30,915 nt of DNA from Escherichia coli (lineage in GTDB: Bacteria > Pseudomonadota > Gammaproteobacteria > Enterobacterales > Enterobacteriaceae), in the NCBI RefSeq assembly GCF_003334335.1, contig NZ_QOWQ01000048.1. One strand, 5' to 3'. Under the pieces are notes generated by a model. That model did not search any database, was not told the DNA's origin, and was given only the letters and a program-made list of their open reading frames with translations. Numbering within the stretch: the first letter of the stretch is position 1; every line of letters begins with the position of its first letter. The position numbers and the translations under genes are program-made. Below, piece by piece: positions 1-30,915 of this stretch.

Positions 1-264
1 ATGAAGTTCCGGCTCGGTGGTTTCGAGGCCATAAAGTCGGCTTACATGGCCCAGGTGCAGTACAGCATGTGGGTGACACGAAAAGATGCCTGGTACTTTG
101 CCAACTATGACCCGCGTATGAAGCGTGAAGGACTGCATTATGTCGTGGTTGAGCGGGATGAAAAGTACATGGCGAGTTTTGACGAGATGGTGCCGGTGTT
201 CATCGAAAAAATGGACGAGGCACTGGCTGAAATTGGTTTTGTATTTGGGGAGCAATGGCGATGA
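1..264 (+). CDS. exo: Lambda-type exonuclease (Red-alpha), C-terminal fragment, 5'-partial at the window edge
   Basis: The 87-aa translation ending ...[11 protein letters not shown] matches the lambda Exo C-terminus as I recall it; the ATG at position 1 is internal to the real gene. Confidence 0.85.
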
Positions 265-443
265 CGCATCCTCACGATAATATCCGGGTAGGCGCAATCA
301 CTTTCGTCTACTCCGTTACAAAGCGAGGCTGGGTATTTCCCGGCCTTTCTGTTATCCGAAATCCACTGAAAGCACAGCGGCTGGCTGAGGAGATAAATAA
401 TAAACGAGGGGCTGTATGCACAAAGCATCTCCTGTTGAGTTAA
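255..443 (+). CDS. Small lambda orf60a-like protein
   Basis: A 62-aa ORF overlapping the exo 3' end, in the position and orientation of lambda orf60a. The true start may be the second ATG at 261. Confidence 0.65.
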
Positions 444-607
444 GAACGAGTATCGAGATGGCACATAGCCTTGCTCAAATTGGAATCAGGTTTGTGCCAA
501 TACCAGTAGAAACAGACGAAGAATTTCATACGTTAGCCACATCCCTTTCACAAAAACTGGAAATGATGGTGGCGAAAGCAGAAGCAGATGAGAGAGACCA
601 GGTATGA
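416..607 (+). CDS. Small lambda orf63-like protein
   Basis: A 63-aa ORF overlapping the previous ORF by 28 nt, the same arrangement as orf60a/orf63 in lambda. Confidence 0.7.
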   Translation: MHKASPVELRTSIEMAHSLAQIGIRFVPIPVETDEEFHTLATSLSQKLEMMVAKAEADERDQV

Positions 608-687
608 CAACCACTGAATGCATTTTTCTGGCAGCGGGCTTCATATTCTGTGTGCTTATGCTTGCCGACATGGGGCTTGTTCAGTGA
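604..687 (+). CDS. Possible 27-aa hydrophobic micropeptide (MTTTECIFLAAGFIFCVLMLADMGLVQ)
   Basis: Its ATG overlaps the orf63-like TGA stop in an ATGA arrangement (604..607). The sequence is a continuous hydrophobic stretch long enough for one transmembrane helix. Confidence 0.35.
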   Translation: MTTTECIFLAAGFIFCVLMLADMGLVQ

Positions 688-899
688 CACCTCAGCAGGA
701 AAACGCCCTTCGCAGCATTGCCCGTCAGGCTAATTCTGAAATCAAAAAAGCCAGACAGCAGTTTCCGGATAAAAACGTCGATGACATTTGCCGTAGCGTA
801 CTGAAGAAGCACCGCGAAACGGTAACGCTGATGGGATTCACACCGACTCACTTAAGTCTGGCAATCGGTATGTTAAACGGCGTCTTTAAGGAACGGTGA
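618..899 (+). CDS. Hypothetical protein in the orf61 region; start uncertain
   Basis: A 93-aa ORF in a third frame, followed by a hairpin plus T-run. It overlaps the micropeptide ORF, so which of the two is expressed is unresolved. Confidence 0.4.
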   Translation: MHFSGSGLHILCAYACRHGACSVTPQQENALRSIARQANSEIKKARQQFPDKNVDDICRSVLKKHRETVTLMGFTPTHLSLAIGMLNGVFKER

Positions 900-921
900 A
901 CATGAAAAGCAAAATCATCAG

Positions 922-945
922 GGAGCTACAGGCTCCTTTTTTATT
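922..945 (+). terminator. Intrinsic-terminator-like hairpin plus T-tract
   Basis: GGAGC-tacag-GCTCC followed by TTTTTTATT. Confidence 0.45.
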
Positions 946-997
946 ATTCGCATTCACCCTCAAGCGTATTAACCAACAATTCAGGGATTAATGGAAG

Positions 998-1219
998 ATG
1001 GCAGACCTCATTGATTCAGCATCAGAAATTGAAGAATTACAGCGCAACACAGCAATAAAAATGCGCCGCCTGAACCACCAGGCTATATCTGCCACTCATT
1101 GTTGTGAGTGTGGCGATCCGATAGATGAACGAAGACGCCTGGCCGTTCAGGGTTGTCGGACTTGTGCAAGTTGCCAGGAGGATCTGGAACTTATCAGTAA
1201 ACAGAGAGGTTCGAAGTGA
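998..1219 (+). CDS. TraR/DksA-family C4 zinc-finger protein (lambda Orf73-like)
   Basis: A 73-aa protein with CxxC...(17)...CxxC (CCECG...CRTCASC), typical of the TraR/DksA zinc finger. Its stop overlaps the next ORF's GTG (GTGA). Confidence 0.8.
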   Translation: MADLIDSASEIEELQRNTAIKMRRLNHQAISATHCCECGDPIDERRRLAVQGCRTCASCQEDLELISKQRGSK

Positions 1220-1467
1220 GCGTAATTCACTCTCAGGCACTGCGTGAAGCGGCAGAGCAGGCAATGCATGACAACTGGGGATTTGACGCGGACCTTTTCC
1301 ATGAGCTGGTAACACCATCGATTGTGCTGACACTGCTGGATGAACGGGAAAGAAACCAGCAGTACATCAAACGCCGCGACCAGGAGAACGAGGATATTGC
1401 GCTAACGGTGAGGAAACTGCGTGTTGAGCTGGAGACAGCAAAAATCAAAACTCAACGAGCAGCGTGA
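1216..1467 (+). CDS. Ea22-like protein, N-terminal part, ended by an in-frame TGA at 1465
   Basis: GTG start overlapping the upstream stop; the 83-aa product resembles the conserved Ea22 N-terminus (recalled, not searched). The same frame stays open after the TGA for 53 more codons, to a TAG at 1627..1629. Confidence 0.6.
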   Translation: MSVIHSQALREAAEQAMHDNWGFDADLFHELVTPSIVLTLLDERERNQQYIKRRDQENEDIALTVRKLRVELETAKIKTQRAA

Positions 1468-1765
1468 GTAGAAGGTGTTATCTCGGATGGAAGTAAGCGT
1501 ATTGCTGAACTGGAGGCCTGGGTTGAATACACAAGAGCTGCATACGTAAGAGCAAAAGACAAGGGAGATTTGATCAGAGTTATTACCCGACAACCAACGG
1601 GATTTTACGCTTACGTACCATGTAATTAGGAATCCTTGAAGTGGCAGCCTAACTGCGGATACACTGAAATGGCGATTTGGTAACATGTTTCGCACAAGGC
1701 TGTTACTACGCTTAAAGATAATCAGCCATGATTAAACGCTTTGTAAAAAGTAAAAGGAAATTACA

Positions 1766-2380
1766 ATGAAAAAATCAATACTAATTTTAGGGCTTACGTT
1801 AATTGTCTCATCTCAAATACCATCGGCAATGGCAAAAAATGAATCAAGACTTTGGGTTGTTGTTGATCGAACGGAAAGACATACCTGCCCTTCAAGTAAA
1901 TGTGGAGTGGCTGGGAAACTATTTTTCAGGGAAGGCGTAGATTTTCTAGAAAAAAAAGGTGAATGGGTTCGTATAACTGAGCCATATTCAGCCTCATGTG
2001 TGGGAGGGGAAAGCGAATATATTAAAGAAGGTAATAAATCCTGCACAAGAAAAAACGGAATCGTCAATGGCAAGTTTTCAGAATGGGTTAAACTTAGTGA
2101 TCTTAGCAGTGAAAGGCCATCAGATCCTGCTGAAAATGCGAGCGGAGATGATACTTTAATCAAAGGATCTGATGACTACCGTATATACAAAAAAGAGTTT
2201 TCTTCGGCAGCTAGGAAGTTAATAAACGAAGGGGTCTGCACGGAAAGCGACTTTAAGGAAATCGGAGGGTGGATGGCATCAAGCAATAAGGGGAAAAACA
2301 TCTATTTCACATATTGCGGAGGAATGACGTTGTCGAACAGAATATACCTAGACGTTAAAAGTGGAAAGACTTTTAGATAA
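1766..2380 (+). CDS. Hypothetical secreted (periplasmic) protein, 204 aa, AT-rich accessory gene
   Basis: SD AAGGAAA 8 nt upstream of the ATG. N-terminal signal peptide MKKSILILGLTLIVSSQIPSAMA with an AMA-K signal peptidase I site and no lipobox. The mature part has 7 Cys. Codon usage is visibly AT-rich compared with the flanking genes. Confidence 0.75.
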   Translation: MKKSILILGLTLIVSSQIPSAMAKNESRLWVVVDRTERHTCPSSKCGVAGKLFFREGVDFLEKKGEWVRITEPYSASCVGGESEYIKEGNKSCTRKNGIVNGKFSEWVKLSDLSSERPSDPAENASGDDTLIKGSDDYRIYKKEFSSAARKLINEGVCTESDFKEIGGWMASSNKGKNIYFTYCGGMTLSNRIYLDVKSGKTFR

Positions 2381-2451
2381 TATGATATTACCAATGACAG
2401 TATTAATTTAATGCCTCCATAGAATTATCTCTAGGAAGTATGTATAAGAAA

Positions 2452-2488
2452 AGCCCGCACAATGAGCTGCTGCGGGCTTTGTGTTATT
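2452..2488 (+). terminator. Intrinsic terminator downstream of the secreted-protein gene
   Basis: AGCCCGCA-(11-nt loop)-TGCGGGCT followed by TTGTGTTATT. Confidence 0.55.
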
Positions 2489-2673
2489 CGCCATATTTTA
2501 TGAAGCAAATACGACACTATAGATAATTAAGCGTTGCTGGTTGTCGATTCCTCACTCACTCCTGTTGATGGCTCTCTTCTTGTATGTGCCATTGAAGGGT
2601 AATATCGAGTAAAAAGATACCGGAAGTATCCGCGCCGCCATGATTGTCTTTCTCCTAATGCAGGAAAAGCAGA

Positions 2674-3012
2674 ATGGCTAAATCATCAGCAGAGCGCAAA
2701 GTCGATCAGAGAGCCAAGCAAGCATCATCCGGTATGCGTAAGCTGGAGCTTGTACTTGATGCTCAGGAAATTGAAATGCTGGATCGTAACTGAGCCACGC
2801 GCCGCTTCAGGCATGCGCCTTACGAGTTTGGTGAGTACATCGCGTTACTGAGCCGCCAGGATGATGCACGTGTGCGCTGGCGTATAAAATCGATCAGCAG
2901 AAAACGTTGCGGTAAGTGCGGCGAGAGAGTTCCTGTTAATTCATGCCCGTGTAATGGTGACTCACAATGCTGGGTGACCAAAGGCTGGCACGAAACAAAA
3001 TTAATGATATAA
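2674..3012 (+). pseudogene. Cys-rich small-protein ORF interrupted by a single in-frame TGA (2791..2793); possibly an ea8.5-type gene
   Basis: Frame 1 is open from 2644 to 3009 apart from the one TGA. The C-terminal half carries CGKC...CPC...C, a zinc-ribbon-like pattern. SD AGGAAA precedes the ATG at 2674. The ORF track shows no intact ORF of 60 aa or more on either strand here. Confidence 0.45.
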
Positions 3013-3040
3013 ATCTCTGTGACATGTCACGGAGGCGGCA

Positions 3041-3469
3041 ATGAAATTAGACCAGCAATATCTAAAAGATCTACTTATCGCATTCGAAAAAACTCATGGC
3101 CCTGACACGATGCTTAGTGAACTAGAGGATAATGGCTTTAATAGATATGACCAAAATTTTATTTTCCATATGCGATTATTATGCGACTACGAATTAATAG
3201 TCAGGGTTGATGGAAAACCTGGGTTCGGTCATATAATGTCCAACGAGTTAGGGGAAGGTGTTGGATATAGTTGGATCGAAGTACCACTGAGGTTGACAGC
3301 AAGAGGGCATGATTTTATTGCTGACTTGCGTCAAAAGGAGGTCTGGCAAACTATAAAAACAAACTTTAAGGATGAGGGAATTAGTACACTAATAAGTGTT
3401 TCAAAATCACTAGCAAAAGGCTTTGCAAGGAAAAAGATAAAAGATATTACAGGAATAGATATTGAATAA
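3041..3469 (+). CDS. Hypothetical cytoplasmic protein, 142 aa, AT-rich accessory gene
   Basis: Strong SD GGAGG 5 nt upstream. No signal peptide or transmembrane segment. Followed by its own terminator. No catalytic motif that I recognise. Confidence 0.7.
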   Translation: MKLDQQYLKDLLIAFEKTHGPDTMLSELEDNGFNRYDQNFIFHMRLLCDYELIVRVDGKPGFGHIMSNELGEGVGYSWIEVPLRLTARGHDFIADLRQKEVWQTIKTNFKDEGISTLISVSKSLAKGFARKKIKDITGIDIE

Positions 3470-30840: not shown

Positions 30841-30915
30841 TGGTGGGTCGTGCAGGATTCGAACCTGCGACCAATTGATTAAAAGTCAACTGCTCTACCA
30901 ACTGAGCTAACGACC
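30841..30915 (-). tRNA. lysZ: tRNA-Lys (UUU), second copy, missing its first 5' nucleotide at the window edge
   Basis: Identical to the 30633..30708 copy over 75 nt. The gene name is tentative. Confidence 0.9.

Follow-up and report, generated by a model that had tools for sequence, protein, structure and literature searches.

A probable overlooked gene for a small membrane peptide, translationally coupled to its neighbours in the early pL operon of lambda-like prophages

The 27-codon ORF at positions 604..687 of the window, the whole stretch of 30,915 nucleotides of Escherichia coli DNA analysed here (contig NZ_QOWQ01000048.1), probably represents a real gene of the early pL operon that has been overlooked, is translationally coupled and encodes a small membrane peptide. 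From the sequence, the gene most likely resides in lambda-like and Stx prophages and most likely encodes a hydrophobic peptide of 27 residues, predicted to form a single helix. Its amino acid sequence is under purifying selection. The gene is widespread in E. coli, the DNA stretch 560-730 being found in 3,142 of 5,426 complete genomes with roughly 4,250 copies in all, yet neither the lambda reference nor current RefSeq annotation includes it.

Setting, overlaps and predicted peptide

A lambda-like prophage occupies the start of the window with its exo-xis block, given here in the orientation of pL transcription, and positions 400-1000 are about 98% identical to phage lambda and many Stx phages. 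The features concerned are listed here by position.

1..264: C-terminus of exo
255..443: orf60a
416..607, plus strand: orf63, the upstream gene (DUF1382 family, 63 aa), matching PHROG 292 with E=3e-36
590..602, plus strand: weak purine-rich Shine-Dalgarno-like stretch GAGAGAGACCAGG, from reading of the sequence
604..607, plus strand: ATGA start/stop overlap with the upstream gene, kept behind several upstream sequences
604..687, plus strand: 27-codon ORF for the hydrophobic peptide MTTTECIFLAAGFIFCVLMLADMGLVQ, with an intact frame and a synonymous excess in the 604 frame only
618..683, plus strand: 22-codon N-terminal "extension" of the 93-aa ORF, equal to the 27-codon gene read out of frame, with 2 of 19 variants synonymous
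619..666, plus strand: predicted membrane-spanning core, codons 6-21, CIFLAAGFIFCVLMLA, from Kyte-Doolittle windows
672..675, plus strand: GGGG (GGGA in most relatives), Shine-Dalgarno sequence of the downstream gene, from phage records
684..687, plus strand: GTGA, in which the stop of the 27-codon ORF overlaps the start of the downstream gene; about 92% of relatives have ATGA here
684..899, plus strand: orf61 proper, 71 aa (RefSeq WP_000188870.1), from PGAP annotation, distant homologues and a synonymous excess
998..1219: orf73, TraR/DksA-type

An earlier note on this DNA, made from the letters alone, had described an ATGA overlap between the ORF and its upstream neighbour. This overlap is present, with ATG 604-606 lying on the orf63 stop codon TGA 605-607 in the sequence ...GGT ATG A. 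The frame runs through 27 codons to TGA 685-687, and this stop overlaps GTG 684-686 of the 93-aa frame, a second overlap that the note had missed, leaving the ORF flanked by 4-nt start/stop overlaps at both ends. About 8% of relatives share the GTG that the window has at 684-686, the others having ATG, a change that is synonymous in the frame of the 27-mer (CAG to CAA). The stretch at 590..602 may act as the ribosome-binding site of the ORF, to judge from its position and composition, and at the equivalent place the methyltransferase and E1V33 contexts described below have GGGAGG or GGAGG. A ribosome_binding_site (GGG/GGA, window 673-675) is annotated for the 71-aa gene in the records of phage 434 and phage 21, and this Shine-Dalgarno sequence of orf61 falls within codons 23-24 of the 27-mer ORF.

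The product is as hydrophobic as had been claimed, with a GRAVY of 1.62 and a core 15-mer CIFLAAGFIFCVLML whose mean Kyte-Doolittle value is 2.87; the best 19-residue window scores 2.33. The peptide thus has an uninterrupted hydrophobic stretch of about 16-20 residues, and its core holds a small-xxx-small motif (G12...C16). It lacks K, R and H altogether and has a net charge of -2, so that the positive-inside pattern is missing. Such an absence of basic residues is unusual for a stable membrane anchor and counts against that role. An open frame across 26 codons was found in 31% of composition-matched shuffles, and openness alone therefore means little. A GRAVY of at least 1.61 was reached by only 0.5% of the open shuffles (P=0.005). 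The chance of having ATGA at both ends, in register and with an open frame between, is about 0.006 by a rough estimate that was reasoned and not simulated.

The peptide is already listed as a hypothetical protein in some GenBank and UniProt records. The exact 27-mer is called "hypothetical protein" on 981 contigs (e.g. BE964_26140; UniRef A0A0A2SGE8) and variants occur in protein collections, e.g. ETI79567.1. It was found unannotated in lambda NC_001416, in PV340536, in phages 434, 21, 06-3462, 1H12 and PA16, and in three RefSeq E. coli genomes. A full-text search of the exo-xis literature with the peptide sequence and keywords gave no mention of the ORF. PHROGs and NCBIfam hold no family for it, the only matches being noise below the cut-off (E=0.68 and E=0.034). 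Two 428-aa proteins that share a cluster with the 27-mer are unrelated to it in sequence and look like a clustering artefact.

Frame under selection, coupling and analogues in Yersinia

The effect of natural variation on the three reading frames was assessed in 244 aligned loci from phage records, IMG/VR and metagenomes. The loci were found through the downstream gene, and the sampling was therefore blind to the sequence of the 27-mer ORF. Three loci with a gap or a missing base in 604..899 were excluded, one of them a contig of 1.3x coverage with a 1-nt gap, and 241 were used. All 241 loci so retained, out of the 244, have an intact ORF. In 608..683 there were 19 distinct variants among the 241 loci and, the family being shallow, the selection test rests on just these 19. 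As read in the 604 frame, 12 of them are synonymous and 7 non-synonymous (P=0.0004 by permutation, with the mix of transitions and transversions preserved), and they fall on codon positions 3, 1 and 2 in numbers of 12, 5 and 2. For the variants seen in at least two loci, 9 of 12 are synonymous in this frame (P=0.0005). The 618 frame has 2 of 19 and the third frame 3 of 19 synonymous, neither being significant. The same test gave P=0.002 for the 71-aa orf61, P=0.004 for orf60a and P<1e-5 for orf73, and the coding signature of the 27-mer is as clear as that of these accepted genes nearby, matching or exceeding those of orf61 and orf60a. For orf63 (416..607), whose product has an NMR structure in the literature, the synonymous excess was not significant (15/42, P=0.17), reflecting either relaxed constraint or limited power of the test.

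Residues 9-20 and 23-27 of the 27-mer are invariant in the 241 loci. Five of the seven non-synonymous changes lie in residues 3-8, and the other two (A21S and D22G) both come from phage 1H12. Frame-by-frame conservation thus supports 604 and rejects 618 over the region of overlap. A comparison of synonymous and non-synonymous change in each frame had been proposed in the earlier note, and its outcome is the opposite of the 618-only pattern that was named there as speaking against the peptide. Every DNA copy recovered in a blastn search for distant copies was at least 91% identical, and with no copy below that identity a deep alignment is impossible. A search for homologous proteins returned almost only E. 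coli sequences. Intermediate homologues (51-79% identity) were set aside as uninformative, coming from error-ridden low-coverage or IS-disrupted assemblies.

Translational coupling, the other main claim made for the ORF at the outset, fits the sequence data, in which the start/stop overlap persists when the gene upstream is a different one. ATGA is kept behind orf63 endings ..GTATGA and ..GCATGA, behind an N6-adenine methyltransferase that ends in ..GGGAGGCTGCATGA (..GCATGA) and provides a strong Shine-Dalgarno sequence, and behind the divergent orf63 variant of phage 1H12. The start overlap is in this way retained in four contexts when the upstream gene changes, and (A/G)TGA is kept at the 3' end. 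For 42 of the 244 loci the homology to the window begins exactly at 604, and the ORF thus travels with orf61 and not with orf63, its start codon being the mosaic joint. Ribosomes ending the upstream gene would re-initiate at the AUG within AUGA, and those ending the peptide at (A/G)UGA would be handed to the orf61 start. The arrangement has been lost in Escherichia sp. E1V33, where a 14-nt deletion within the ORF (L252 1435..1500) destroys the frame and sets an upstream-overlapping ATG in frame with orf61, which yields a fusion ORF with an N-terminal extension. At least one lineage can therefore do without the peptide.

A similar layout was found in Yersinia phages and prophages, where 27 of 40 loci with an orf61 homologue have a hydrophobic ORF of 29-36 aa immediately upstream. 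These small ORFs form three mutually unrelated families, MKRKISDGAWFWIYLIGYTVAATLYIVSNAG, M..SFVMAYLDWILLIVGGGVAFWLLWVKEW and MNQPKVTEILIGICFALFIICLVVYVVGDAMNGVSM, and were placed as follows.

L010, 802..897: Yersinia small ORF
L254, 1402..1491: Yersinia small ORF
L255 and L256, 1399..1497: Yersinia small ORF
L258-L292, about 894..1004: Yersinia small ORF

Most have an ATG that overlaps the stop codon of the gene before it (ATGA or TGATG), and a stop that either overlaps the start of the homologue or lies 0-3 nt before it. The families have pN/pS values of 0.25-0.55 at pS up to 0.9, and their length differences are whole codons. BLASTP detected no similarity when the E. coli 27-mer was compared with family C of Yersinia. 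Lacking detectable similarity, the Yersinia ORFs (e.g. CNF20462.1, "Uncharacterised protein", of Y. intermedia) are treated as analogues and not as homologues: it is the layout that recurs and not the sequence. They share with the 27-mer the position, the single hydrophobic stretch, the coupled layout and the purifying selection, but carry basic residues (K/R) where the 27-mer has none. The orf61 homologues of Klebsiella, Enterobacter and Vibrio lack a comparable small ORF.

Two readings that deny the peptide a function have to be weighed against these data. The 27 codons might only carry ribosomes to the orf61 start, with a peptide that is itself functionless, as the 4-nt overlaps at both ends, the orf61 Shine-Dalgarno sequence inside the ORF, and those orf61 homologues that lack such an ORF and overlap the upstream gene directly would allow. 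A mere carrier of ribosomes would not constrain amino acids, yet the synonymous excess and the invariant residues are there, the hydrophobicity exceeds that given by composition, and each of the three unrelated Yersinia families found at this position is hydrophobic and shows purifying selection. This reading is accordingly considered unlikely.

Equally improbable is a non-coding spacer or 5' leader of orf61 in which frame, overlaps and hydrophobicity all coincide by chance. The concentration of variants at codon position 3 in a single frame speaks against it, as do the intact ORF in all the aligned loci apart from the three excluded and the analogous ORFs in Yersinia. The frequent opening of shuffled frames, the shallowness of the family, the lack of annotation in current RefSeq and the lambda reference, and the frame-breaking deletion in one genome would suit it. 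The region's RNA is less stably folded than shuffled controls (z=+1.9) and the 27-mer region has no match in Rfam, antitoxin RNAs included; an RNA element was rejected on these two grounds. Neither promoter-like nor terminator-like sites were found in 604-687. A type I toxin-antitoxin locus does not fit either, as there is no promoter on the minus strand and no Rfam match and the ORF lies within the pL operon. A coupled gene for a membrane peptide thus remains the preferred reading of 604..687.

Start of orf61 and the 93-aa ORF

The 27-mer ORF overlaps a 93-aa ORF at 618..899 in another frame, as the earlier note had stated together with the view that one of them is unlikely to be real. Both appear to be real, and only the 22-codon extension of the larger one is spurious. 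The larger ORF starts at 684 (71 aa) and not at 618. RefSeq places the 71-aa WP_000188870.1 at the equivalents of 684..899 and leaves 608..683 unannotated. Homologues of 30-48% identity, found in phages of Klebsiella, Yersinia, Vibrio and Enterobacter, all begin their alignment at residue 1 of the 71-aa protein, and distant orf61 homologues are also annotated with a start at the residue equivalent to 684. Positions 618-683 were found neither conserved as protein in the frame of orf61 (PHROG 303) nor present in the homologues. In addition, no Shine-Dalgarno sequence can be read before 618, one locus has lost the ATG at 618, one common allele puts TGA at 615-617, and the annotated start varies among phages between 588, 618 and 684. 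In published AlphaFold models of the 93-aa Phi24B protein, residues 1-23 are structurally unreliable and residues 24-93 take a three-helix, homeodomain-like fold (PMC8614690). These patterns indicate that the 5' ends of the 93-aa ORF (618..899) and of the 61-aa "orf61" of lambda are annotation artefacts, and a start corrected to 684 matters for structural and DNA-binding studies that use the 93-aa form.

That a larger ORF (93 aa from 618, or the 61-aa lambda orf61 from 588) is real here and the 27-mer spurious is very improbable, since the few synonymous variants in its frame, the TGA of the common allele, the inconsistent starts, the homologues beginning at the equivalent of 684 and the unreliable model of residues 1-23 (PMC8614690) outweigh the annotation of the 93-aa form in many phage records, its inclusion in PHROG 303 and an upstream ATG that is in frame with it in E1V33.

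Other records, RefSeq phage records among them, annotate the 93-aa form and sometimes name it "cell division protein ZapA", a PGAP product name. The name rests on a sub-threshold Pfam match (E=0.02 over 34 residues) and an NCBIfam match is absent for the 93-aa form, so that it is probably misleading.

Phage lambda, the published orf61 mutants and possible function

No temperate phage has been studied more closely than lambda, in which the 27-mer is identical and intact, at complement(30925..31008) of NC_001416. The window and the Stx phages have a run of six A at 744-749 where reference lambda has seven (lambda about 30863-30869), a run also found in the close kin HK630, DE3 and D2 and in recent re-sequencings of lambda. 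With A7 the 71-aa gene of lambda is frameshifted to a 29-aa product. The annotated 61-aa "orf61" of lambda is accordingly a chimera of 32 out-of-frame codons, from the 27-mer gene and the end of orf63, followed by the 29-aa stump. Both lambda orf61 (NP_040613) and Phi24B vb_24B_7c consist of the same DNA as the 27-mer gene in a different reading frame, the former covering it fully and the latter almost fully, and the N-termini of their products include an out-of-frame reading of it (PMC6213356, PMC8614690).

In the frameshift plasmid for lambda "orf61" the C at window position 655 is deleted, within codon 18 of the 27-mer (PMC4195576 Table 1), and this 1-bp deletion delayed phage development (PMC4195576). 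The lambda delta-orf61 allele replaces about 641-723, whereby codons 13-27 and the start of the 71-aa gene are gone. The Phi24B delta-orf61 deletion starts at window position 676 and removes the last three codons of the 27-mer with its stop (PMC4699033 Table 2). Every published "orf61" mutant thus alters the 27-mer too, and the phenotypes are not assignable to Orf61 alone. As the 71-aa gene of lambda is already a stump, the phenotypes seen in lambda may stem from the 27-mer to a greater degree than from Orf61. The mRNA of the region was as abundant as N mRNA in early lambda infection (PMC4195576). In a review of lambda ribosome profiling, the new ORFs given for this block are only one of 7 aa and one of 31 aa, with no 27-mer; the annotated lambda orf61 covers the 27-mer completely, so that footprints on the latter would presumably have been credited to orf61.

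The significance of the gene lies mainly in its presence in lambda and Stx phages and in its confounding of existing mutants. The exo-xis block is conserved in Shiga-toxin phages and affects prophage induction, hence toxin release. As a putative mechanism, the peptide would insert into the inner membrane and act early in lytic growth. It would probably help to tune the lysis-lysogeny and induction behaviour that has been credited to "orf61", jointly with Orf61 or upstream of it. A more far-reaching and tentative suggestion is that the peptide and the 71-aa Orf61 form a conserved two-gene module of lambdoid prophages in Escherichia and Yersinia, made in fixed proportion by coupling, in which the peptide is the membrane partner or anchor. 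With orf61 proper frameshifted in lambda, the published lambda phenotypes (altered lysogenisation and delayed induction) would then come from loss of the 27-mer.

Small inner-membrane proteins of fewer than 50 aa include KdpF (29 aa), AcrZ, MgtS and CydX. The 27-mer resembles these in its size, its single hydrophobic helix, its having been missed by annotation and its place within an operon, where such proteins often sit next to the gene of a partner, and KdpF is likewise without basic residues. Unlike them, it is phage-encoded in the pL early operon, has no sequence similarity to them, and its membrane location is predicted. The type I toxin peptides DinQ (27 aa), TisB (29 aa), Hok, Ibs and ShoB resemble the 27-mer in length and in their hydrophobic single helix, DinQ and TisB also in being expressed after DNA damage, but the 27-mer ORF lies inside a polycistronic operon between coupled genes and does not stand alone.

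Two further ORFs of the region were noted. At 896..991 (ATG at 902), an ORF of 29/31 aa is annotated in several phage records, in phage 21 as "putative secreted protein", and probably corresponds to the 31-aa "orf2313" described from ribosome profiling of lambda. This ORF showed no synonymous excess (5/21, P=0.82), and within it a hairpin at 920-938 with a T-run after it resembles a terminator. Further downstream, a 204-aa ORF with a signal-peptide-like N-terminus MKKSILILGLTLIVSSQIPSAMA occupies 1766..2380, located 3' of an ea22-like ORF and sitting where lambda has ea22 and ea8.5, and may be a moron, that is, a prophage-borne accessory gene.
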